Origin: an uncultured Gemmatimonadaceae bacterium
GTDB lineage: Bacteria; Gemmatimonadota; Gemmatimonadetes; Gemmatimonadales; Gemmatimonadaceae
Reading direction: 5' to 3'
Assembly (NCBI GenBank): GCA_963822945.1
Contig: CAWGJO010000001.1
Location: 1-64,000, forward strand
Length of the DNA: 64,000 bases
Shown here: in pieces, positions 15,250-31,284 of the stretch
Layout: every line of letters starts with the position of its first letter
Position numbering within the stretch: position 1 is the stretch's first letter
The notes under the pieces: generated by a model
The model's database searches: none
What the model was told of the DNA's origin: nothing
What the model saw: the letters and a program-made list of their open reading frames with translations, nothing else
Translations under genes and position numbers: made by a program

Positions 15250-15912
15250 ATGGCGGCCGGGGCTGACCGCTCGCCGGCACGCGCCCGCCGCCATCGCTGG
15301 AGCCCGCTCGAGCGGCAACTCCGGCAACGAATCGGCCCGCTGATTGCGGGTGTGGATGAAGTGGGACGGGGCCCCCTCGCGGGCCCCGTTGTCGCATGCG
15401 TCGTCGTCATGCCGCCCGGCGCCCGGGCGATCGCCGGCGTGGACGACTCCAAGCGGCTCACCGCCGCCCAGCGCGAACGCCTCGACGTCAAGATCCGCGC
15501 GCGCGCGCTCGCCTGGAGCCTCGGCGCCGCCAGCGTGCGGGAGATCGACGAGATCAATATCTACAAGGCGACCGTGCGCGCCATGCAGCGCGCCCTGGCT
15601 CGGCTGCGCGTCACGCCGGACCACGTGATCGTGGACGGCAAGCCGATCCGCACCCTTGGCCTGGAGCACACGGCCGTGGTGGGCGGGGATGCCCGCTGCT
15701 ACAGCGTGGCCTGCGCCTCGATTGTCGCCAAGGTGACGCGGGATCGGCTGATGCGCGCCCTGGCGCGCCGGTACCCGCTCTACCACTGGGAGCGGAATGC
15801 GGGCTACGGCACGCCCGCCCATCTGGCCAGCCTGTGGGAACACGGGGCGTCGATCCACCACCGCCGGTCGTTCCTGCCGCGCGTGCAGGCCGAGATGTTC
15901 GATCAGGGCTGA
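15250..15912 (+). CDS. rnhB: Ribonuclease HII
   Basis: AGVDEVGRGPLAGPVV, DDSKRL, VDG, GGDA, ASIVAKVTRD, GYGT, HRRSF. Confidence 0.96.
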   Translation: MAAGADRSPARARRHRWSPLERQLRQRIGPLIAGVDEVGRGPLAGPVVACVVVMPPGARAIAGVDDSKRLTAAQRERLDVKIRARALAWSLGAASVREIDEINIYKATVRAMQRALARLRVTPDHVIVDGKPIRTLGLEHTAVVGGDARCYSVACASIVAKVTRDRLMRALARRYPLYHWERNAGYGTPAHLASLWEHGASIHHRRSFLPRVQAEMFDQG

Positions 15913-16229
15913 TCCGACCTACCGACCGACCAAGTGATCTGACGGTTCAACAGGTCTCGTCAAAAGGCCCAGACAAGGCACAAGCCTTTTGGCCGCTTTC
16001 ACTTACCTGTTGTTTGTCGCTTGAGCACCCGGCGGGCCTCGCCAATCGTCCGAAAACCCATGTGACGATTGGTTCCAATGAATGGGTTACCCAACAGAAT
16101 ACCCGTTGTGGCCAACTCATTGGCTCCAGCGCGTATTTCCTTCCCACCCCCACGAGATGCCGGCTCCGTCCCGAGGCCCGCACCGTGCACCCGCCGCCCG
16201 CCCTGGGCGGCGACCACCGGAGGAACACC

Positions 16230-19200
16230 ATGCGATTGGAACGCTGGAAGCTGTTTGCCGCCGGAGCGGCCGCGATGCTGTGCCTGATGGGCGCGGCGTC
16301 GACCGTTCAGGCACAGGGGACCGTGACCGGCCGCGTGATGGCGACCGGAACCAACGAGCCGCTGAGTGGCAGCCGCGTGATGCTCGTTGGGACGAGCCTC
16401 GTTACCGTGACCACGGCCGATGGCCGGTACACGCTCCGTAACGTGCCGGCCGGCGCGCAGCAAGTCCGCGTCATCCGGGTCGGGTATCAGGAGATGAAGA
16501 AGCCGGTGACCGTGACGTCCGGCGAGACGGCGACGCTCGACTTCGCGATGAGTCAGGCGGTGGTCCAGCTCTCCGAGATCGTGACCACGGCCACCGGGCA
16601 GCAGCGCCGGGTGGAGCTCGGCAATGCGGTCTCGACGCTGGGGAACGTCAACCAGAAGGTCGAGACGACGCCGATCAACAATCTCTCCGACCTGATGGTG
16701 GCCAAGGCGCCGGGCGTGGTGGTGCTGCCGGGCGCCATGACGGGCGCCGCGCCGGTGGTGCGCATCCGCGGCATCGGGTCGCTGGCCACGAGCGGCAGCG
16801 GCATCAACAACAACCCGATCTACATCATCGATGGCGTGCGCATGAACACCCAGACCTACGGGTTCGGGTTCACGGGCACGCAGGGCAGCATGCTCAACGA
16901 CCTGGATCCGAACGAGATCGAGGACGTCGAGATCGTGAAGGGCCCGTCGGCGGCGACGCTGTACGGCACCGACGCGGCCAACGGCGTCATCGTGATCACG
17001 ACCAAGAAGGGCCGGGCGGGCAACACGCGCTGGACCTGGTTCGGCGAGGTGGGCAACGTCGACGATCGGAACAAGTATCCCACGTCCTACGCGTCGTGGA
17101 GCCACAGCGGCACGACCAACAACCGCTGTTCGCTGGTGAACCAGAGTCTCGGGAACTGCACGGTGGACAGTCTGACCTCGTTCAGCGTGTTGGAGAATCC
17201 CGCAACTACCTCGATCCATATGGGGAATCGCAGCGACTACGGGATGCAGGCGAGCGGCGGGTCGGACCAGGTGCGGTTCTTCGTCAGCGGCGACATCCAG
17301 AACGAGATCGGCCCGGTCAAGATGCCGGGGTTCGCGCAGGCGACGCTCGTCGACTCGATGGGCACGCCGATGCGGGATGAGTGGCTGCACCCCGAGGCCT
17401 TCCAGTCGTACAACTTCCGGACGAACCTGAGTGCGAGTCTGAGCCCGAAGTTCGATCTGACGATGAACGCGGGGTACTCGAACACCAATCAGCGGATGCC
17501 GGAGGTGGACAACAACATCTTCAGCTTCATCTACAGCGCGCTCAACAACCCGGGCTTCAACTACAATGGGTTGGGTTACAACGAGATCGGCACGCTGGGC
17601 GAGTACAAGAACGGCTACGGCGTCTACAGCCCGGCGCAGATCTTCCAGATGGTGAACGAAGCCGGGACGCAGCGGTTCATCGGCTCCGCCAATGCGTCGT
17701 GGCGGCCCTTCGCTTGGATGACCAATACGGGGACGGCGGGCCTCGACCTGGCGAACCTGAACCAGCTCCGGCTCAACCGCTTCGGCGAAGGCGCCAACTC
17801 GGGCACGCGGCGCGAGGGCAGCGTCCGCAATTCCCAGGACAACTATCGCAACTTCTCGGCGAAGCTGGTGAGCAATTCCAACTGGCAGGCGCGGTCGGAC
17901 CTGATCGTCACCACGACGGTGGGCGCCGACTACACCAACCAGGAGCATGACGGCGTGGTGGCCGGCGGGACGAACCTGCCGCCGGGCGCGCAGACGGTGG
18001 GGCAGGCGGCGGTGCAATATGCCAGCAACACGCTGCAGACGGTGGACAAGACGCTCGGCCTCTACGTCCAGGAGCAGGCGGCGTTCCGCGACCGGTTGTT
18101 CGTGACCGTGGCGGCCCGCACCGACCAGAACAGCGCGTTCGGGACGAACTTCTCCCGGATCGTGTACCCGAAGGCGAGCGTGTCCTGGATCATCTCGGAC
18201 GAGAGCTTCTTCCCGAAGTACAGCTGGCTGAACCAGTTCCGGCTGCGCAGTGCGTACGGCGCGTCGGGCGTCTCGCCCGGCGGCACGGTCGCGTTGCGGA
18301 CCTACAATGCCTCGACGGCCAACATCGCCAGCATCCCGGGCGCGGCCGGCGGGACCGACACGCCGGGGCTGCTGGCGAATGCGCTGGGCAACCCCAACCT
18401 CAAGCCGGAGCGCTCGGCGGAATTGGAGGCCGGGTTCGAAGCGGACGTCATCGACAGCCGCGCCCACGTGAGCTTCACCTACTACAGCAAGAAGACGCAC
18501 GACGCGCTGATCAGCCAGCAGATCGCGTCGTCCTCCGGCGCCTCGGCCCTGAGCGTGTTGAAGAACCTGGGCTCGGTGGCCAACTCGGGGCTCGAACTCG
18601 AGGTCAACAGCCAGCTCATCGACCGGCGCCAGTTGGGCTGGGACGTGACGATCGCCGCCTCGCACAACAGCAACAAGGTGCTGTCACTGGGGAACGATCC
18701 CAGCGGCCAGCCCAACCCGACCATCGGGACCGGCAGCTCGCGGGACTCGGTCGGCCTGCCGGTGAACGCCGTGTTTTCGCGGCCGTACACCTACAGCGAT
18801 GCGAACGGGGACGGCATCATCACGCCCAACGAAGTGACGATCGATCCGAACTACCAGTACAAGGGGTATTCGGCGCCGCGCGACATCTTCTCGGTCACGA
18901 ACGGCTTCGACCTGTTCAACCGGAAGCTCCGCATCACGGTGTTGACCGACTACAAGGGCGGCAACATCCTCAACAACAGTTCCTTCAGCTTCTATTCCCG
19001 GGGCGCGACGTGGTATGCGAGCAACGTGCCGACGACGCCGCTGTGGGATCAGGCGCGCTCGGTGGCGTACTCGAGCGCCAAGAACCCGAACTCCGACTGG
19101 GGATTCCGGGAGAGCGGGCAGTACTGGAAGCTGCGTGAGGTGTCGGCCGCCTGGACGATGCCGAACGTGGTGGCGGCACGGCTGCGGGCGCGCGATGCCC

Positions 19201-19352
19201 AGCTGGTGTTCTCGGCGCGCAATCTCCACACGTGGACTTCGTACACGGGCTTCGATCCGGAAGCGAACTACTCCACCGGCGACGTCCAGAACACGTTCTC
19301 CACGCTGGCGCCGCCGACGTACTTCATTCTCCGCATGAATCTCCACTACTAG
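16230..19352 (+). CDS. SusC/RagA family TonB-linked outer membrane transporter
   Basis: Signal peptide, carboxypeptidase-regulatory-like N-domain, NPIYIIDGV, EIEDVEIVKGPSAATLYGTDAANGVIVITTKKG, GNPNLKPE, C-terminal aromatic residue; RBS GGAGG before ATG 16230. Confidence 0.93.
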   Translation: MRLERWKLFAAGAAAMLCLMGAASTVQAQGTVTGRVMATGTNEPLSGSRVMLVGTSLVTVTTADGRYTLRNVPAGAQQVRVIRVGYQEMKKPVTVTSGETATLDFAMSQAVVQLSEIVTTATGQQRRVELGNAVSTLGNVNQKVETTPINNLSDLMVAKAPGVVVLPGAMTGAAPVVRIRGIGSLATSGSGINNNPIYIIDGVRMNTQTYGFGFTGTQGSMLNDLDPNEIEDVEIVKGPSAATLYGTDAANGVIVITTKKGRAGNTRWTWFGEVGNVDDRNKYPTSYASWSHSGTTNNRCSLVNQSLGNCTVDSLTSFSVLENPATTSIHMGNRSDYGMQASGGSDQVRFFVSGDIQNEIGPVKMPGFAQATLVDSMGTPMRDEWLHPEAFQSYNFRTNLSASLSPKFDLTMNAGYSNTNQRMPEVDNNIFSFIYSALNNPGFNYNGLGYNEIGTLGEYKNGYGVYSPAQIFQMVNEAGTQRFIGSANASWRPFAWMTNTGTAGLDLANLNQLRLNRFGEGANSGTRREGSVRNSQDNYRNFSAKLVSNSNWQARSDLIVTTTVGADYTNQEHDGVVAGGTNLPPGAQTVGQAAVQYASNTLQTVDKTLGLYVQEQAAFRDRLFVTVAARTDQNSAFGTNFSRIVYPKASVSWIISDESFFPKYSWLNQFRLRSAYGASGVSPGGTVALRTYNASTANIASIPGAAGGTDTPGLLANALGNPNLKPERSAELEAGFEADVIDSRAHVSFTYYSKKTHDALISQQIASSSGASALSVLKNLGSVANSGLELEVNSQLIDRRQLGWDVTIAASHNSNKVLSLGNDPSGQPNPTIGTGSSRDSVGLPVNAVFSRPYTYSDANGDGIITPNEVTIDPNYQYKGYSAPRDIFSVTNGFDLFNRKLRITVLTDYKGGNILNNSSFSFYSRGATWYASNVPTTPLWDQARSVAYSSAKNPNSDWGFRESGQYWKLREVSAAWTMPNVVAARLRARDAQLVFSARNLHTWTSYTGFDPEANYSTGDVQNTFSTLAPPTYFILRMNLHY

Positions 19353-19373
19353 CCCCGTCGAGGATCATCTACG

Positions 19374-20768
19374 ATGACGAAATTCAGCTTCTGGCATCGA
19401 GGAGGACGGGCGGCGATCGCGGTCGTCTGCGGCAGCCTCTTCCTCGGCGCCTGTAACGTGAACCAGGAGTTGCTGCAACCGCAGCAGCCGGGCGTGATCA
19501 GCCCCGAAGCGGTGGTCACGGCCACGGCCGCCGACGCGCTCTGGACCGGCGCGCTCGGGCAATGGAAGGCCGCCATGAACGGCAGCGGCACCAGTAATCG
19601 GGAATCGCTGTGGAACTGGGAGGGGCTGTTCACCGACGAGATGCGGTCGACCGACACCTTCACCCAGCGGCAGGACGCCGATCAGCGGAACCTGCAGAGC
19701 AACGACGGTGTGCTGACGCCCATCTACAACACTGCGCAGCAGGCGCGCGGCCGGGCGCGGGACGCGATCAACGCGCTGTTGGCGTACGATCAGTCGGCCA
19801 CCGGCAAGCAGCACGTGGGCGAGATGTACCTGATGATGGGCTACATCGAGATGGAGATGTCGCAGGCGTTCTGCAACGGCATCCCCTTCGGCGAGACCGT
19901 GGATGGGGTGCCGGAGTACACCCAACCGCTCACCAACGCGCAGGGGTTTGCGCTGGCGATCTCGCGGATCGATACGGCGCTCACCTTCCTCACGGGCACC
20001 GACTCAGGGTCCCTGACCATCAAGTGGGCAGCGCTGGTGACCAAGGCGCGGGCGCAGGTGGATCTCGGTGACTTCGCCGGGGCTGCCGCGACCGTGGCCG
20101 GGATCCCGACCGGCTTCCAGTACAACTTCACCTATTCGCAGACCACGGTCGACAACGAGTGGTGGATCCTGGGGACGAGCGTGAAGCGGTATTCGGCGGG
20201 CGACAGCACTGACGTCGCGGGCCAGATCCTGAACGCGATTCCGTTCGCGCGCCTGGGCGATCCCCGCGTGTTGGCCGTGGATACGCACACGAAGGCGGAA
20301 GACAACACCTCCGACTTCGTGGACGTGCAGAACTGGGGGCGGGACGATCCGATCCCGGCGCTTTCCGGCATCGATGCGCGGCTGATCGAAGCCGAGGCGC
20401 AGTTGCAGGCCGGCAGCATTCCGGGGATGATGGCGATCCTCAACAATTTGCGCACGTCGCCGCAGGTGCTCGGCATCATGAACGTGCCGGCGATGGCGGC
20501 GCTGCCGACCCCGCCGGATCTGACGTCGGCCACCAATCTGTTCTTCCGCGAGAAGGCGCTCTGGCAGTTCCAGCGCGGCTATCGCATGGACGACCTGCGG
20601 CGGCTGGTGCGGCAGTACGGCCGCGCGCAGAACAACGTGTTCCCGTCGGGCAAGTTCACGTCCCTGGGCGCGCCGGCGGGTGATTACGGCTCGCAGGTGG
20701 CGTTCCCGGTGCCCGATTACGAGAAGACCAACCCGAACTTCCACGGCTGCATCGACACCAACGCCTGA
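19374..20768 (+). CDS. SusD/RagB-like outer membrane lipoprotein
   Basis: Lipobox LGAC, TDE, ARLIEAEA, REKALWQFQRGYRMDDLRR, FPVP; directly downstream of susC. Confidence 0.88.
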   Translation: MTKFSFWHRGGRAAIAVVCGSLFLGACNVNQELLQPQQPGVISPEAVVTATAADALWTGALGQWKAAMNGSGTSNRESLWNWEGLFTDEMRSTDTFTQRQDADQRNLQSNDGVLTPIYNTAQQARGRARDAINALLAYDQSATGKQHVGEMYLMMGYIEMEMSQAFCNGIPFGETVDGVPEYTQPLTNAQGFALAISRIDTALTFLTGTDSGSLTIKWAALVTKARAQVDLGDFAGAAATVAGIPTGFQYNFTYSQTTVDNEWWILGTSVKRYSAGDSTDVAGQILNAIPFARLGDPRVLAVDTHTKAEDNTSDFVDVQNWGRDDPIPALSGIDARLIEAEAQLQAGSIPGMMAILNNLRTSPQVLGIMNVPAMAALPTPPDLTSATNLFFREKALWQFQRGYRMDDLRRLVRQYGRAQNNVFPSGKFTSLGAPAGDYGSQVAFPVPDYEKTNPNFHGCIDTNA

Positions 20769-25656: not shown

Positions 25657-26084
25657 GAGGGGGTGGTTCGGGGAGAAGCGAGGCGATCGTCCCGTAACGG
25701 CGCCGTTCGCAGGGTCATATGTAAGTCCCGTACCTCGGGGGGACCAGAAAAGTGCTTGACATGTCAACGAACGGCCCCGCGACGGTTCCGACAGACGGCG
25801 GTCGCGCTCGGCCATCCCGGATGCATCAAGGTGGGGCATGGAGTCGACGGAGCCCGTTCCGCATGGTATACTCGGACGGAGATGCGTACGCGTCCGGGTT
25901 GGCCGCAGGGGACTTGGTGGGCTCCCAATCGAGCGACCAGCCGCCGCCAGCCGATCGGGGTGATTTCCCGGGCGCAAAATGGCGTCCGTTGGGCCGCCGA
26001 GGAGGAGGGTGTCGAAATCGCTGCGCCCGGAGTGTGGCTCGGATGACTACCGGTGCGATATCGGCATGTCTTTCGGGCGCTTGG

Positions 26085-26100
26085 CGGCATGTAAATTGCT
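26085..26100 (+). promoter_or_regulatory. Sigma54 (-24/-12) promoter candidate for the RiPP operon
   Basis: CGGCATGTAAATTGCT matches TGGCACG-N4-TTGC(A/T) with exact GG-N10-GC spacing, about 55 nt before the PqqD ATG. Confidence 0.6.
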
Positions 26101-26154
26101 ACCACTCATGGCGGTTGCTCCGATCATCTGCCCTCCCCAGCCCGAGCTGTCCCG

Positions 26155-26445
26155 ATGGAGTCGGCCTTGACCGAAGACGTTCTGCCCGGCCGTCGCGAAG
26201 CCGTCGTGTTCCAGACGGTTTCCGATGGCGCCATCCTCCTCCATACGGAGGAGGAGGTTTACTACGGCCTGAACGCAGTGGCGGTGCGCGTGTGGGAACT
26301 CCTTCCGGACCATCGGGATCTCGGCGAACTGTGCGCTTGCTTGAGCGCTGAGTACCCGGATGTGGCGCCCGAACAACTCCGGACCGACGTGGCGGAGTTG
26401 CTGGACGCGCTGGAGCGCGCCGGGCTGGTGGTGCCGCGATCATGA
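26155..26445 (+). CDS. PqqD family RiPP recognition element (lasso B1/E protein)
   Basis: DGAILLHTEEEVYYGLNAVAVRVWELL...LSAEYPDV...DVAELLDALERAGLV, a classic stand-alone RRE. Confidence 0.92.
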   Translation: MESALTEDVLPGRREAVVFQTVSDGAILLHTEEEVYYGLNAVAVRVWELLPDHRDLGELCACLSAEYPDVAPEQLRTDVAELLDALERAGLVVPRS

Positions 26446-26912
26446 TGGCACAGGCGCGATCCCGCGTGGGGGCGCTGGCCCGGCTGCCCGCCCTTTCGGC
26501 CCGTGACCTCGCGTGGGTGGGGCGGGCGCAGTGGTACCTGCTGGGCGCGCGTCTCTCGCTCCTTCTGACGCCGCGAGGCCGGCTGTTGGCCGCCGTGCCC
26601 GCGGCGGAGGCCGGGAAGGCACCGGGCGGAGACGCGATGGCTCGTTCGCGGCGAGTGGCTCTCGCCGTGGATCGTGCGGCGCAGTACGGGCTGTTCTCGC
26701 CGACGTGTCTGGTGCGTGCGATCGCGCTCGAGCGGATGTTGACGCGTGAAGGCGTCGCGGGCGCGGTGGTTCGCATCGGCGCGCGTCAGCGGGCGGCACG
26801 GCCGGAGATGCACGCGTGGATCGAGGTCGGCGGTGTCGTGATCGGCGAGCGACCGGAAGTGGCCGGTGCGTTCACGCCGCTCCACGACTTCACGGCGGTA
26901 CGGCGCGTATGA
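26442..26912 (+). CDS. Lasso peptide biosynthesis B2 protein (transglutaminase-like leader peptidase)
   Basis: PTCLVRAIAL (catalytic Cys), VVRIG, HAWIE (His, Trp, Glu); ATGA overlap with the RRE gene. Confidence 0.92.
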   Translation: MMAQARSRVGALARLPALSARDLAWVGRAQWYLLGARLSLLLTPRGRLLAAVPAAEAGKAPGGDAMARSRRVALAVDRAAQYGLFSPTCLVRAIALERMLTREGVAGAVVRIGARQRAARPEMHAWIEVGGVVIGERPEVAGAFTPLHDFTAVRRV

Positions 26913-27025
26913 GCGGATTTCATGGGGGACCTCGGCTGGACCAGGGACCCTGCTTTCAGTTGCGGGACGGGCCCGCATCCAGCGCGAGCCTGCCGCTCGC
27001 ACGTTCTACATAACCTCGGGGGACC

Positions 27026-27169
27026 ATGTACGAGAAACCGAAGCTGGAACGGTACGGCACGCTCCGAGAACTCACGTTGCTTGGGTTCGAACACCACTGG
27101 GATGGCGGCCATTTCGGCCATCATTTCTTCGGTGGGGGGTGGACCGATCACGAGAGTGATCGATCCTGA
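27026..27169 (+). CDS. Lasso-type RiPP precursor peptide (47 aa), absent from the ORF track
   Basis: Manual translation MYEKPKLERYGTLRELTLLGFEHHWDGGHFGHHFFGGGWTDHESDRS; YxxPxL...G...LT leader motif, GGGGGA RBS, Asp at core position 8, C-terminal Ser. Confidence 0.9.
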   Translation: MYEKPKLERYGTLRELTLLGFEHHWDGGHFGHHFFGGGWTDHESDRS

Positions 27170-27228
27170 CGAGCATGAGAGCGGGCGGCGTCGGTCTGGT
27201 TGACGGCGCCGTCCGGCTCTCGGGCCGC

Positions 27229-28179
27229 ATGCACTGCTATCATCTCTTCGGCGGCATCCTCGCCTCCGAGATCGAATTTCCCGGGTTGCCGTCCGCTCCC
27301 CCGGGGAAAGGACGCTGGTCGCTGACGTGCGCCGCGCCGCCGGCGTCCGCGGACCCGTTGCCGCGGCTGGGCGCCGAGGCGGTGACGGGGCGCGTGCGGG
27401 TGGTGTTGCGCGGCTCGCCGTCGCGGTTCCGATTGACATATGACGACACCGGTGCATTCGAAATAACTGATGGCGGTCGGCGAATCGTCTGGCATCGGCC
27501 GGCCGGTGCATCGGTCGACCTCCGGAACGTGCGGGCCGATATCCTGGGGCGCGTGGTGGCCGTGGCGCTCGCCGCCGCCGGGATTCCCACGTTCCACGGG
27601 AGCGGCGTGGCGCTGGGCGGCCGGGGCGTGCTCTTTCTGGCGCCCAAGCGACATGGAAAGTCGACGGCGGCGGCGGCCCTCGTACGGGCCGGTGCGCGAC
27701 TCTGGGGGACGACACGATCGGCGTGGTGCCCGGGGCGCGAGCCAATGGTGCTGCCGGGCGTTCCGGCGGTGAACCTGTGGCGCGACGCGGCACGTTGGCT
27801 CCAACCGACGGCCGTACTGGGTGAAACCGGCCGCAAACGGCGAATCAACTGGGGCAGCCTCGGCGAGCGCGCTGAGCATCCGGTGCCGCTGGGGGCCGTG
27901 TATCTCCTGGATCCCGCCGACGCGGGGGAAGTACGGCGGGAACCGCTGCCTGCGGTGCCGGCGGCGCTGGCCCTTGTTGGGCAAGCCAAGATCGGCGCGT
28001 TGCTGGGGCCCGGACACGCCCCCACGCTGTTGGCACAATGCGTGCGCCTGTCGGCGGCCGTTCCCGTGTATCGGCTCACGGTGCCGCGAGATCTGAGTCG
28101 CATCGGCGAACTGGTGCGATGCGTGGGCGAGTGGCACGACACGCCACTGCGGGCTGCGGGCGGAGCGCCGGTGCCGTGA
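27229..28179 (+). CDS. HPr-kinase-like RiPP kinase
   Basis: FHGSGV (conserved His), FLAPKRHGKST P-loop; the GDD motif is present in a shifted frame at 27705-27713; N-terminal YHLFGGILASEIEFP. Confidence 0.82.
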   Translation: MHCYHLFGGILASEIEFPGLPSAPPGKGRWSLTCAAPPASADPLPRLGAEAVTGRVRVVLRGSPSRFRLTYDDTGAFEITDGGRRIVWHRPAGASVDLRNVRADILGRVVAVALAAAGIPTFHGSGVALGGRGVLFLAPKRHGKSTAAAALVRAGARLWGTTRSAWCPGREPMVLPGVPAVNLWRDAARWLQPTAVLGETGRKRRINWGSLGERAEHPVPLGAVYLLDPADAGEVRREPLPAVPAALALVGQAKIGALLGPGHAPTLLAQCVRLSAAVPVYRLTVPRDLSRIGELVRCVGEWHDTPLRAAGGAPVP

Positions 28180-29279
28180 CACCGGGCGCGGCCGCTGCCG
28201 ACTCGGACGGGGGCGCGCCGGCCACGACGTTCGCCGACCCGCATGGCGGGCCCACCATCATCCGCATCCGCGGGCTCGAGAAGCGTTTCTCGACCCGCCG
28301 TTCCCTCGGGCAGTGGGTGGGGCGTCCCCGGAGGCGGGCGCCGGTAACCGCGCTTGCGGGCGTCGCGCTCGACATCCCGCGCGGCGGCTTCTTCGGGCTG
28401 CTCGGTCCGAACGGCGCCGGCAAGACCACGCTCTTCAAGATCCTGGCGACGCTCGTGCGGCCCGAGGCGGGCGTGGTCGAAGTGGACGGCATCGACGCGC
28501 TGCGTGAACCCGCCGCGGTGCGCGCGGTATTGACCCCGGTGATCGCCGACGAGCGGAGCCTGTACTGGCGGTTGTCGGGTCCCGAGAATCTCCGGCTGTA
28601 CGCCGCGCTGTACGGAGTGCCCAAGTCGCGTCGCGATCCTCGCATCCGGTCGCTGCTCGAGACGGTGGGTCTTGGCGACGCCGGGGATCGCATGGTGGGC
28701 ACGTATTCCTCGGGAATGAAGCAGCGCCTGCTGATCGCCCGCGCGCTCCTCTCGCGGCCGTCGGTGCTGCTCCTCGACGAGCCGACGCGTAGTCTCGATC
28801 CGGTGAGCGCCCGCGACTTTCGACGGTTTCTGCGCGAAGAGGTGGCCGGACGCCAGGGATGCACCGTTGTACTTGCCACGCACAACGCGGACGAGGCGTT
28901 CGATCTGTGCGAGCGGCTCGCCGTACTGAATCGCGGGGTTCTGATAGCGACGGGCACGGCCGATTCCCTGGCCCGTGCGGCCGCCACCGAGCGATGCCGG
29001 ATCACCGTGGCAGCGTCCGAGTCGGCGAGGGCCGTCGCCGTCGCGGAGAAGAGCGGGTTCGTCGGCTTCGCCCCGAGCGCGTCGACGGACGACGGGTGGG
29101 TGGTGCTCGAGGGACCGGCGGACGGCGGCGCGGCGCGAACGGCGGACTTGAACGCGCTGCTGCTGGGTGCCGGGATCCCGGTGGCCGCCGTCGAGCCGGT
29201 GCGGTTGGCGCTCGCCGACCTCATCGAGGGGTTGGTGGCACGGGCGCGGAAGCCGGCCGCCCTCGAGGTCGCGCCGTGA
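28176..29279 (+). CDS. ABC-2 type exporter ATP-binding subunit
   Basis: GPNGAGKTT, YSSGMKQR, LLLDEPT, ATH; GTGA overlap with the kinase gene. Confidence 0.93.
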   Translation: MTPGAAAADSDGGAPATTFADPHGGPTIIRIRGLEKRFSTRRSLGQWVGRPRRRAPVTALAGVALDIPRGGFFGLLGPNGAGKTTLFKILATLVRPEAGVVEVDGIDALREPAAVRAVLTPVIADERSLYWRLSGPENLRLYAALYGVPKSRRDPRIRSLLETVGLGDAGDRMVGTYSSGMKQRLLIARALLSRPSVLLLDEPTRSLDPVSARDFRRFLREEVAGRQGCTVVLATHNADEAFDLCERLAVLNRGVLIATGTADSLARAAATERCRITVAASESARAVAVAEKSGFVGFAPSASTDDGWVVLEGPADGGAARTADLNALLLGAGIPVAAVEPVRLALADLIEGLVARARKPAALEVAP

Positions 29280-30076
29280 GCCGGGTGGCCGCGCTGGCGC
29301 GGGCGGACTGGATGGCGTTCGCCAGCTATCGGATCCGACTCCTGATGTCGGTGTTCGCCCTGCTGGCCACCGTCGTACCGCTCTACTTCGTTTCCGGCGC
29401 ACTGCAGCCGGTGATGGGACCGGTGATTCGCGACGAAGCGCACAACGCGTTCGGCTTCCTGCTGTTGGGCATTGCCGCGCTCTCGCTGGTCTCGACGGCG
29501 GTCAACGCGCTGCCGACGGAAGTGGGGGCCGGGATCAGCACGGGTACGCTGGAAGCGCTCCTCGCCACGCCGACCCCGCTACCGGCCCTCCTGCTCGGCA
29601 TGGTGGCGTTCACCGTGGAGTGGTCGGCGATCCGGGGCGTGATCTTCGTGGGCGCCGGATGGGCCCTGGGGGCGCAGCTCGTAGGGGCGCAGGTGGTTCC
29701 GGCGGCGGCAATCCTCCTGCTGCTCATGGCCGTACACTTTGCATTCGGATTGTGCGCGGCGGCCCTCGTGATCGCCTTTCGAACGTCTGCAGCAATTCCC
29801 AAGGCCGTGTTGTTCCTTTCCTCGCTGCTTGGCGGGGTGTACTACCCCACCCACGTGATTCCGTCGTGGCTGCAAACGGCATCGGCGCTTCTTCCCATGA
29901 CCTACGGCCTCCGCGCGCTGCGCCGGGTGCTCCTGCAGGGCCAGAGCCTGGCGGCGGTTGGCGCCGACGTGGGCATTCTGGCAGCTTTCGGGGTGTTCCT
30001 CACACTCGTTGGCGCCGTCGCTTTGATGGCCGCGCTTCGTTACGCGCGCTCGCACGGGACCCTCGCGCAGTACTAG
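29276..30076 (+). CDS. ABC-2 type exporter permease
   Basis: 6 TM segments, GTLEALLATP, LGGVYYP...PSWLQ...LPMTYGL; GTGA overlap. Confidence 0.9.
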   Translation: MSRVAALARADWMAFASYRIRLLMSVFALLATVVPLYFVSGALQPVMGPVIRDEAHNAFGFLLLGIAALSLVSTAVNALPTEVGAGISTGTLEALLATPTPLPALLLGMVAFTVEWSAIRGVIFVGAGWALGAQLVGAQVVPAAAILLLLMAVHFAFGLCAAALVIAFRTSAAIPKAVLFLSSLLGGVYYPTHVIPSWLQTASALLPMTYGLRALRRVLLQGQSLAAVGADVGILAAFGVFLTLVGAVALMAALRYARSHGTLAQY

Positions 30077-30078
30077 CG

Positions 30079-31284
30079 ATGGCGCCGCGATCGCGCAGTG
30101 CCGAAGCCGAGTTGGTGCTGGAGTGCGTGTGTGCACCGGCGTCGGCCGGCGGACCGACGGCGCCGACCCCGCACGCCGCCGATGTCGACTGGCTGCTGGT
30201 GGCACAACTCGCGGAACGGGAGCACCTCCTCGGCGTATTGTGGCCGGAGCTTTCGGCGGCGCACGTTGCGATCCCGGACACGATCGCCGCCGCAATGCGA
30301 CGTCAGGCGCTCGTCAGCGAGTTCCGCATGGCCGCACTCGAAGCGAAACTCGCGCAGGTGGTCCGCCTGCTCGCCGAACACGACATCCCGGTGATGCTCA
30401 TGAAGGGCGCGGCGCTCGCCACGACGCGCTACGGCTCGTTCGCCCAGCGCCCCATGGGCGACCTGGATTTGTTGGTACGCGAGGCCCAGGCGGAGGAGGC
30501 GTGGGAACTGCTGCACGGCGCCGGCTGGCGGCCCGAGCGGGAAGGCATGGACGGCTTCTACGCGAAGCACCAACACCTGTGCCCGCTGGTGGCCCCCGGT
30601 GGCGGCAACGTGGTCGTGGAGCTGCATCGGTGTCTGCTCTATCCCCACGGCCCGTTCCAGCTGCCCGAAGACGACGTGTGGACGGCGGCGTCGCCCGTGG
30701 ACGTCGGCGGACACACTGCCTGGGTGCCGTCCCCCGAGCACCTAGCACTGCACCTGTGCATCCACTTCGCATGGTCGCACGAGATGCGCTTCGGGTTGGG
30801 GCGGATGGTTCGGGACCTGGGCGTGCTGAGCCCCGTCGTCGACTGGGACCGCCTGGTTCGCTTGGCGCACGCCACGCATGCCGAGTCCTGCTGCTACTGG
30901 CCGTTGAGGCTGGCGGCATTGCTCGGCGGCGTGCCCGTGCCGCCCGAGGTGACGGCGTCGCTCGCTCCGCGTTCGCCGGCGTGGCTGCGGAATGCACTTG
31001 TGCGAGTCGTGATTACCGCCGCGCTCGATCCGCGACGGGAGTTCGTCCCGTCGATCCAACTCTGGCACTTCGCATGGGCGCTCGCCATCCGTCCCGGCGC
31101 GTCGGGGCACGGCGCGGCGAGGCCGTGGCGATACCGTGAAGATTTCGGGAAGTACACGCACGGGATCCCGCCGTTGCCGATTCTTCAACGGGTCCGCGTC
31201 CAGTTGGCCGCGCTCCCGTACTGGGCGCGCTTCTTCGGTGTTGCCATCGGAATGGGGCAACGGCGTCGGCGCCGGGGCAACTGA
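30079..31284 (+). CDS. Nucleotidyltransferase family protein (NTP_transf_5-like, lasso-cluster associated)
   Basis: MLMKGAAL...Y...RPMGDLDLLV, VELH, HLCIH, DW. Confidence 0.88.
   Translation: MAPRSRSAEAELVLECVCAPASAGGPTAPTPHAADVDWLLVAQLAEREHLLGVLWPELSAAHVAIPDTIAAAMRRQALVSEFRMAALEAKLAQVVRLLAEHDIPVMLMKGAALATTRYGSFAQRPMGDLDLLVREAQAEEAWELLHGAGWRPEREGMDGFYAKHQHLCPLVAPGGGNVVVELHRCLLYPHGPFQLPEDDVWTAASPVDVGGHTAWVPSPEHLALHLCIHFAWSHEMRFGLGRMVRDLGVLSPVVDWDRLVRLAHATHAESCCYWPLRLAALLGGVPVPPEVTASLAPRSPAWLRNALVRVVITAALDPRREFVPSIQLWHFAWALAIRPGASGHGAARPWRYREDFGKYTHGIPPLPILQRVRVQLAALPYWARFFGVAIGMGQRRRRRGN

Follow-up and report, generated by a model that had tools for sequence, protein, structure and literature searches.

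A histidine-rich lasso-type precursor in a Gemmatimonadaceae gene cluster that appears to have lost its cyclase

We analyzed a 64,000-nucleotide stretch of DNA from an uncultured Gemmatimonadaceae bacterium (the window, on contig C1 of the assembly that we call G000), and in it a gene cluster built around a 47-residue open reading frame (ORF) at 27026-27169 on the plus strand. A first-pass annotation of this DNA had described the ORF as a lasso peptide precursor with a histidine-rich core. We find that the ORF is very probably a real precursor gene of the lasso family. At this locus, the cluster is with similarly high confidence a derivative of a lasso cluster from which the cyclase gene, C, has been deleted; for the genome as a whole, we regard the same statement as likely. 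What the cluster now makes is a more tentative matter, and our preferred reading, held with reserve, is a leader-cleaved, linear and exported histidine-rich peptide that is possibly modified on serine.

The ORF is present exactly as first described: it translates to MYEKPKLERYGTLRELTLLGFEHHWDGGHFGHHFFGGGWTDHESDRS and then a stop, with an in-frame stop four codons 5' of its ATG. It divides into an 18-residue leader and a 29-residue core, preceded by a plausible ribosome-binding site.

27018..27023, plus strand: Shine-Dalgarno-like GGGGGA, 2-3 nt before the precursor ATG, read from the sequence
27026..27079, plus strand: leader peptide, residues 1-18, MYEKPKLERYGTLRELTL; matches NF033521 and is an exact fit to YxxPxLx3Gx5Tx
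27080..27169, plus strand: core, 29 aa, LGFEHHWDGGHFGHHFFGGGWTDHESDRS, and the stop codon; from the translation, with an acidic position 8 and a conserved block

At nine homologous loci, GGAGG or GGGGG occupies the site that corresponds to GGGGGA. The NCBIfam model NF033521 (lasso_leader_L3) matches precursor residues 2-21 at 27.6 bits (cut-off 19). Over the whole 3.97-Mb assembly it gave four matches at E<=10, with the precursor alone above the cut-off, and it had no match above the cut-off in any of 14 control genomes. The leader reads YEKPKLERYGTLRELTL, with Y2, P5, L7, G11 and T17, so that the YxxPxL motif for binding a recognition element of peptides that are synthesized ribosomally and modified post-translationally (the RiPP recognition element, RRE) and the Thr at -2 are both in place and exactly spaced, as first proposed. 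Across 11 genus-level sequences, 11 leader positions are invariant. The conservation in syntenic clusters that a real gene of this kind calls for is also found, as the matching locus of same-genus genomes carries a precursor that is 53-91% identical (G012, 91%; G006, 81%; G001, 64%; G005, 63%; G009, 62%; G010, 53%). None of our claims draws on the unpublished genome G022. A word-indexed protein search with the precursor returned two candidates, P0002 (histidine-type, 79% identical) and P0003 (alike in the leader only). Scans of 25900-27400 gave no sigma-70 promoter site and one terminator-like site, which is no excess over shuffles, and the sequencing runs listed as sharing words comprise six DNA runs (shares 0.05-0.11) and no RNA run.

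Immediately upstream of the precursor gene, A, lie two genes whose products match the RRE protein and the leader peptidase that the first-pass annotation had placed beside it.

26155..26445, plus strand: B1, PqqD-type RRE protein, 96 aa (PF05402, 1.4e-18; lasso_PqqD families)
26442..26912, plus strand: B2, transglutaminase-like lasso leader peptidase, 156 aa (PF13471, 5.8e-16; NF033537 lasso_biosyn_B2, 62.8 bits, cut-off 33)

B2 retains Cys89, His124 and Asp149, which are invariant in seven sequences. No cyclase gene was found in the cluster or elsewhere on C1, where none of the seven PF00733 matches of the assembly falls and NF033535 is also without a match. The orthologous loci of other genomes show where one would be expected. 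In G001, G009 and G010, the order between the same flanking genes is B1-B2-C-A-K-ABC-perm-N (K, kinase; ABC and perm, exporter ATPase and permease; N, nucleotidyltransferase), and G005 is likewise arranged on a contig that is cut; the C gene of the orthologous loci encodes 649 aa. In the window and in G006, the order between these flanking genes is B1-B2-A-K-ABC-perm-N. G012 holds both states in tandem, about 4 kb apart (L039, G012:C15:72000-91999). Its copy 1 is histidine-type, lacks C and N, and encodes the precursor that is 91% identical to the window's and a B1 that is 88% identical; copy 2 is complete and cysteine-type, B1-B2-C-A-A-K-ABC-perm-N, with two precursors. A metagenome contig, L083, reads B1-B2-A-K with a histidine-type A and without C. 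As a separate observation on the cyclase genes, the G001 query finds the cis cyclase of G009 (L042, G009:C6, 7962-9669) in two frames, one matching query residues 1-230 and the other 229-649, a pattern suggestive of a frameshift in the G009 gene.

The space between B2 and A still holds what look like both ends of C.

26909..26977, plus strand: remnant of the deleted C, with a start codon overlapping the B2 stop, the codons M-S-G-F and ~45 nt of the former 3' end

In the window, the B2-to-A spacer is 113 nt long and reads MSGFHGG..., and the cyclases of G001, G010, G012 copy 2 and G005 begin MSGFL(G/C)VFGP. G006 keeps ~20 further codons of the C N-terminus, and the ~45 nt of the former 3' end can be aligned in all three cyclase-less copies (G000, G012 copy 1 and G006). 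As 5' and 3' remnants of C persist, our reading is that the gene was deleted where it stood; a single old deletion that later eroded would be consistent with the 3' boundary region shared by these copies and with 5' remnants that nest within one another. The working lasso pathway that the first-pass annotation took for granted is therefore missing a central gene, with no orthologue of C found in the assembly or in G006, and closure of a ring is doubtful because the cluster has no cyclase.

We placed the cluster in a wider family. A scan of one genome per species gave 36 loci, 32 of them labeled as Gemmatimonadaceae or Gemmatimonadota, and a metagenome scan gave 19. One of the latter, L101, is a pattern match and not a homologue and was left out; the window, the 36 loci and the other 18 make 55 loci and 50 distinct peptides. 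All 50 fit YxxPx[LVIM]xx[YFML]Gx5Tx. With the core counted from a cut after the residue that follows the leader Thr, 32 peptides are acidic at position 8 and 15 at position 9, and three have no acidic residue at 7-9; the acidic acceptor that the first-pass annotation saw at core position 8 is thus Asp8 here, and 47/50 family peptides have an acidic residue at 8 or 9. Two Cys occur in 35/50 and a C-terminal Ser in 37/50, and a cyclase lies within the fetched flank in 31/36 loci. Judged by these sequences, there is a lasso-type RiPP family, widespread in Gemmatimonadota, whose leaders read MYxxPxLxR(F/Y)GTLRELTx, whose cores for the most part end in ...RS, and which has K and N as putative tailoring genes. 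A number of further loci (L061, L062, L073 and L088-L100) have precursor genes with the same leader, but their flanks, as far as fetched, show no match to the enzymes queried; one short family among them, AGG..PGDxANP(Y/F)HRY, is acidic at position 9.

Two comparisons from this survey lean towards an uncyclized product. Between the window and G006, 5/9 positions of the ring region differ against 3/20 of the tail (Fisher p 0.067, on what is essentially one independent comparison), and core position 1 goes from Leu in the window to Arg in G006. The cysteine-type peptides that have a cis cyclase show the opposite trend, the ring region being their conserved part. The second comparison is with an unrelated cyclase-less lineage (L064 5150-8331, L090 1589-4874 and L091 1074-4101), ordered B1-B2-A-K-ABC, whose core APFSA(I/L)G...GDCGPNVP(V/I)GDPSACGRS has no acidic residue at 7-9 and whose precursor has a ratio of nonsynonymous to synonymous substitution (dN/dS) of 0.14 at dS 1.23.

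The rest of the genome was searched for the missing enzyme. With five cis-cyclases as queries, tblastn against the whole assembly found no orthologue; the best matches were ~29-32% identical over most of their length, and one short high-scoring segment pair of 138 aa on C20 reached 41%. These matches are the cyclase of a second cluster on C20 and two C21 genes. In G006, the best match to the G001 cis-cyclase was 32% identical; identity to the true orthologues is far higher, at 72-73% in G010, G012 and G009. Several candidates were rejected. The two C21 genes encode glutamine-hydrolysing amidotransferases of the AsnB/exopolysaccharide (EPS) kind (497 and 458 bits to TIGR01536), the Asn-synthase match on C35 is QueC, and a further match, at C20:905.8-907.7 kb, falls in a glycosyltransferase locus and belongs to an AsnB-like gene that is split over three frames. 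The sole tblastn match on C1 came from a stop-to-stop G009 query frame that runs through the B1/B2 region and not from cyclase sequence. Independently of this search, the AsnB-like gene on C20 (L046 5658-7697), which passes through three frames in succession and has glycosyltransferase and WecA-like genes next to it, would be a pseudogene, or else it would indicate that the assembly contains indel errors.

If the locus were a canonical lasso cluster, then its cognate cyclase would have to lie either in the 12% of the genome that is missing from the assembly or on a contig left outside the bin. The assembly is 88% complete and in 45 contigs, which leaves room for such a gene, and off-cluster genes are known in other lasso systems, for example the citrulassin deiminase (PMC8498205). 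We nevertheless consider this improbable: G006, which is 93% complete in ~20 contigs, has the same cyclase-less locus and no orthologue either, the remnants of C point to a deletion in place and not to relocation, and most family loci keep the cyclase within the flank.

The genome does have one other lasso-type cyclase, in a second lasso-type cluster at C20:717-724 kb (L012 7715-14342) that is ordered B1-C-A-K-N-ABC and adjoins a WecA-like gene. Its precursor ends with YVPPRLLVYGVVRDLTA before the predicted cut and SGGRVGKHDKAVKHSRTGF after it; the predicted core, SGGRVGKHDKAVKHSRTGF, has a predicted Ser1-Asp9 ring and no C-terminal Ser. No B2 gene lies within ~8 kb of this cluster in any of six genus genomes. 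The main rival to a linear product, which we judge unlikely, is that the core of the window's precursor is processed by B1 and B2 and then closed in trans, Leu1 to Asp8, by the C20 cyclase. The two clusters would complement each other, because one is without C and the other without B2. An intact C20 cyclase is conserved throughout the six genomes, the assembly has exactly two RREs of the PqqD type and two NTP_transf_5 genes, one of each per cluster, and the leaders YEKPKLERYGTLRELTL and YVPPRLLVYGVVRDLTA share their motif spacing and 8/17 residues. The acidic residue at core position 8 is also kept in 4/4 histidine-type peptides. Against closure in trans, the C20 cyclase is just ~29-31% identical to the deleted type, and the substrate of its own cluster, for which a Ser1-Asp9 ring is predicted, is very unlike the window's in sequence. 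The change of position 1 from Leu to Arg took place between genomes whose C20-type cyclases are 84% identical, which is unexpected under cyclase constraint. Nor need the second cluster depend on the window's B2, because B2-like genes of a C35 type are present across the genus, in 11/17 genomes, four of which have no match to the cluster-1 precursor at E below 0.1. In G000, this is a stand-alone transglutaminase-core gene of 146 aa at C35:67.5-67.9 kb (L045 9500-9940), adjoining queC and a radical-SAM gene, and it could be the peptidase of the second cluster. B2 was likewise undetected by tblastn in 16/31 cyclase-bearing loci of the family survey. A complex prediction for the C20 cyclase with the window's B2, made with alignments, scored 0.00 in both runs and carries no weight either way.

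All seven genes are open in the window and in G006. We computed dN/dS among the three cyclase-less copies, between which synonymous divergence is 0.2-1.1.

A: whole gene 0.12-0.20; leader 0.05-0.19; core 0.14-0.33
B1: 0.12-0.18
B2: 0.19-0.21
K: 0.27-0.30
ABC ATPase: 0.26 (G000 against G012 copy 1 only; G006 rows left out, as the N-terminus is over-extended and has stops in G006)
N: 0.21-0.24

The cyclase-less cluster is under purifying selection. A remnant from which nothing useful is made, and whose conservation merely reflects a recent loss of the cyclase, is accordingly the reading to which we give the least credence. In its favor, the nearest relative, G012, still has an adjoining cyclase, so that the loss may be recent, and a compensated frameshift in K removes a conserved GDD motif from the gene as assembled. 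Gene-wide dN/dS values of 0.12-0.30, over synonymous divergence of 0.4-1.0, speak against it, as do the shared 3' boundary and the longer 5' remnant of G006, which fit one old deletion, and the fact that the K frameshift is compensated.

27175..28179, plus strand: K, HPrK-like kinase, 334-aa ORF (weak HprK_rel_A match, E 0.01; homology to the C20 kinase)
27702..27736, plus strand: out-of-frame segment inside K, one base missing after 27701 and one base in excess at 27736

The K ORF begins five bases past the precursor stop, and its true start is likely the ATG at 27229 (Met19, invariant in the alignment). K and the second cluster's kinase, which matches PF07475 at 3.8e-10, share 31% identity over 241 aa, and a profile of five K homologues matches the HPrK/P structure 1jb1 (E 1.6e-8). 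Its Walker A GKS is intact. The two indels were called relative to three homologues, those of G012 copy 1, G012 copy 2 and G006. Between them the ORF frame reads WGTTRSAWCPGR, while the other frame, LGDDTIGVVPGA, matches the conserved LLGDD..AVVPG, so that 12 codons are scrambled and GDD is lost from the ORF as assembled. LLGDD aligns with LIADD of HPrK/P, and we take the Asp pair of GDD and ADD to be catalytic. GDD is intact in the K of G012 copy 1 and G006. Because the frameshift is compensated, K returns to the proper frame for its downstream two fifths. The indels may be real mutations or an error of long-read assembly; as they stand, they would speak against phosphorylation in this genome or hint at decay, and the argument that the first-pass annotation drew from a kinase-bearing cluster is weakened for this genome. 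The C-terminal Ser to which that argument referred is well supported, being invariant as Ser47 in 11/11 genus-level sequences and recurrent in the family.

The residue counts given for the core agree with ours: 6 His, 4 Phe, 2 Trp and 7 Gly, with Asp8 and a C-terminal Ser. Ser stands only at core positions 26 and 29, and position 3 is Phe. Given a His frequency of 4.7% in open frames of at least 300 aa in this genome, the probability of at least six His in 29 residues is ~0.002, uncorrected. Within the family, more than one His occurs in 4/50 distinct peptides, which have six each, and the other 46 have 0-1; the histidine-rich core is without counterpart among them. The four come from the window, G012 copy 1, G006 and L083, and the L083 peptide is identical in sequence to P0002. 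They share an invariant GHFGHHFFGG..WTD block and C-terminal RS, and five of the six His positions are invariant while flanking positions change. Their genus sisters read xGxG(P/A)DGDGG...GCxxGC...RS. On the core, the best feature score in the protein atlas was 0.77, under the lead level.

The clusters that encode these peptides also appear to be related to each other. Trees of B1+B2 and of the ABC ATPase place three histidine-type clusters in one group (SH-like approximate likelihood-ratio test, SH-aLRT, 80-82), and the K tree does not settle the grouping. The window tracks G012 copy 1 until the permease gene ends (identity in 200-nt windows, 76-92%; by blastn, one alignment at 83.7% over 3,991 columns), and its N gene follows the G012 N that lies after copy 2 (74-96% per 200-nt window), a pattern that would fit either loss of copy 2 here or its gain in G012. 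Taken on sequence evidence, the core rich in His, Phe and Gly is a derived variant that is limited to one small clade of one genus.

The HH/HxxHH content of the core had been put forward as a sign of metal binding (Zn, Ni or Cu) rather than antibacterial activity, which would hold whatever the topology of the peptide. We regard this as somewhat unlikely. Six His in 29 residues, five of them at invariant positions amid changing flanks, and 0-1 His in the other 46 family peptides count in its favor. However, the cluster has no metal-related gene, and our search of the literature on histidine-rich lasso peptides, by titles and abstract openings, found no such peptide. Clavanins, histatins and shepherins are rich in His, Phe and Gly and act on membranes in a pH- or Zn-dependent manner, and such peptides make the composition non-discriminating. 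From composition, either metal binding or a pH-dependent membrane activity is plausible.

Where the core begins bears on the ring that it could form. In the Bsf system of Bradymonas sediminis, the YxxPxL motif occupies -17 to -12 relative to the cut (PMC10368454), and as the motif of the window's leader would span the same positions, the predicted cut lies between Leu18 and Leu19. This would put Thr17 at -2 and give a core with Leu1 and Asp8, for which the ancestral pathway is predicted to have made a Leu1-Asp8 ring. Among the 11 genus-level sequences, core position 1 varies (Leu, Arg, Ile and Val) and position 2 is an invariant Gly, so that the register with Gly1 and Asp7, which had been offered as an alternative, may instead be the true one; with reasonable confidence, we favor the register with Thr at -2. 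We agree that Leu1 is uncommon. Citrulassin A is a lasso peptide with Leu1, which is thus compatible with lasso formation, although citrulassin A comes from an unrelated actinobacterial cluster with its own cyclase.

Collectively, these observations are consistent with a model in which B1 binds the YxxPxL leader, B2 cuts after Leu18, and the 29-aa core that starts with Leu leaves the cell in linear form through the ABC-2 exporter. A linear core is the most likely outcome because the cluster's own cyclase is deleted and no orthologue was found. Where K is intact, the invariant C-terminal Ser would probably be phosphorylated by K and then glycosylated through N. There are precedents: BsfB1 and BsfB2 set the core free in vitro with no cyclase present (PMC10368454), it is the precursor and not the threaded peptide that the paeninodin kinase phosphorylates on its C-terminal Ser (PMC8498205), and PsmN is required for adding one or two hexoses to the phosphate of phospho-Ser (PMC6993621). 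The cut site, the linear topology, the modification of Ser and the export are our inferences. Several points count against them. The assembly is incomplete and holds one other lasso-type cyclase, that of C20, and the K frameshift removes GDD from the gene as assembled. Core position 8 is Asp, Asp, Glu and Glu in the four histidine-type peptides, as expected if a ring still formed. The histidine-type copy of G012 sits beside a complete cluster, so that a shared cyclase may have served the variant as it evolved, and the window's lineage may have lost the enzyme recently.

The cluster resembles known systems in part. Like those of paeninodin and pseudomycoidin, which are phosphorylated (and glycosylated) lasso peptides of Bacillota with A, B1, B2, C, K, N and D genes and with K and N as the tailoring pair, it has split B1 and B2, a kinase of HPrK-like type, a gene resembling psmN, an exporter of the ABC class and a precursor that ends in Ser (PMC8498205, PMC6993621); unlike them, it has no cyclase gene, a two-gene ABC-2 exporter and a His-rich core, and it belongs to Gemmatimonadota. 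Its leader has YxxP where WxxP is typical of Bacillota (PMC13381572). The cluster of Bradymonas sediminis, a Gram-negative kinase-type lasso cluster with a Gly1-Asp8 ring, N and D, shares the position of YxxPxL, but it has a cyclase, Ile at -2 and a phospho-Ser3, where the window has Thr at -2 and Phe at core position 3 (PMC10368454). The cysteine-type sisters of the genus have the same locus, a near-identical leader, an acidic position 8 and C-terminal RS; they differ in their cis cyclase, two tail Cys, 0-1 His and a conserved ring region, which is variable in the histidine-type.

A functional parallel may be the linear polyphosphorylated peptides (LPPs) encoded by lppA-K-B-S-D-N clusters, relatives of the kinase-type lasso clusters; these peptides are cyclase-less, RRE- and kinase-dependent and leader-cleaved (Popov et al., Nat Commun 2026; PMC13381572). 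That paper states that LPPs are restricted to Bacillota, and the word Gemmatimonad is absent from it. [quoted passage not shown] LPPs, however, use the SpI-type LppS, the leader YxxPxVLxHQxIxFETxxS, phospho-Ser3 and an MsbA-like pump (PMC13381572), whereas the window keeps B2 and a lasso leader with Thr at -2, has Phe at core position 3, and arose by a visible deletion of C in place within one genus. In our preferred reading, the locus is a lasso pathway that became one for linear peptides, functionally analogous to the LPPs of Bacillota, yet independent of them. A literature search on cyclase-less or linear lasso clusters, by titles and abstract openings, found nothing on topic among the papers listed.

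Downstream of K, the cluster continues with the exporter and nucleotidyltransferase genes, and two conserved hairpins lie ahead of the precursor.

26961..26977, plus strand: conserved 6-bp hairpin 1, TGCGGG-n5-CCCGCA (RNAalifold, 9 loci)
26984..27000, plus strand: conserved 6-bp hairpin 2, GCGAGC-n5-GCTCGC (RNAalifold, 9 loci)
28176..29279, plus strand, start uncertain: ABC transporter ATPase (PF00005, 2.4e-27; drrA-like)
29276..30076, plus strand, start uncertain (GTG candidate at 29276): ABC-2 type permease (PF01061, 5.2e-13, from residue 148 of the long ORF)
30079..31284, plus strand: N, NTP_transf_5 nucleotidyltransferase, PsmN-like (PF14907, 2.1e-44)

The longest ORF of the ATPase begins at 28038 and overlaps K, and in G006 this N-terminal extension contains stops. 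The hairpins stand just 5' of the ribosome-binding site of the precursor, in cyclase-bearing and cyclase-less loci alike, and where C is present its stop codon falls within the loop of hairpin 1. Of their 12 predicted pairs, one has a compensatory change, and their conservation is mostly at the level of sequence; they may influence how the mRNA is processed, its stability or attenuation. The cluster is flanked by a gene for L-2-hydroxyglutarate oxidase (LhgO), on the minus strand, and a CLC channel gene. All seven genes between these two are assigned, and neither a metal-related gene nor an SpI-type (SipW-like) peptidase is among them. About 6 kb upstream of the cluster, at 15396-20768, the window has a 1318-aa ORF for a large TonB-dependent receptor that includes a CarboxypepD_reg domain, and after it an ORF of 464 aa without a Pfam match.

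Our broadest interpretation is also a tentative one, somewhat more so than that of the product. It holds that the locus captures a lasso pathway shortly after the loss of its cyclase, and with it an independent, B2-dependent origin outside Bacillota of linear, exported peptides resembling LPPs, whose core would have been reshaped into a peptide rich in His, aromatic residues and Gly with a new activity, metal-binding or pH-gated; its C-terminal Ser may bear a phospho-glycosyl group. With the L064/L090/L091 lineage, the conversion from lasso to linear peptide would have happened repeatedly. If this is true, then genome-mining rules that demand a cyclase would overlook such clusters. The locus would also be a dated, sequence-level example of a lasso pathway turning into a linear-peptide pathway, with the remnants of C still visible and both states held by G012, and it would be relevant to how the LPP class, described in 2026, arose. 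The tandem pair of G012 is a natural experiment in the shared use of a cyclase, and the three states, cysteine-type with a cyclase, histidine-type without one, and both together in G012, make the question directly testable. The histidine-rich core, which has no counterpart among the family peptides surveyed or in the papers listed, may in turn point to a non-antibiotic role, such as metal handling, in uncultured Gemmatimonadaceae of soil and sediment.

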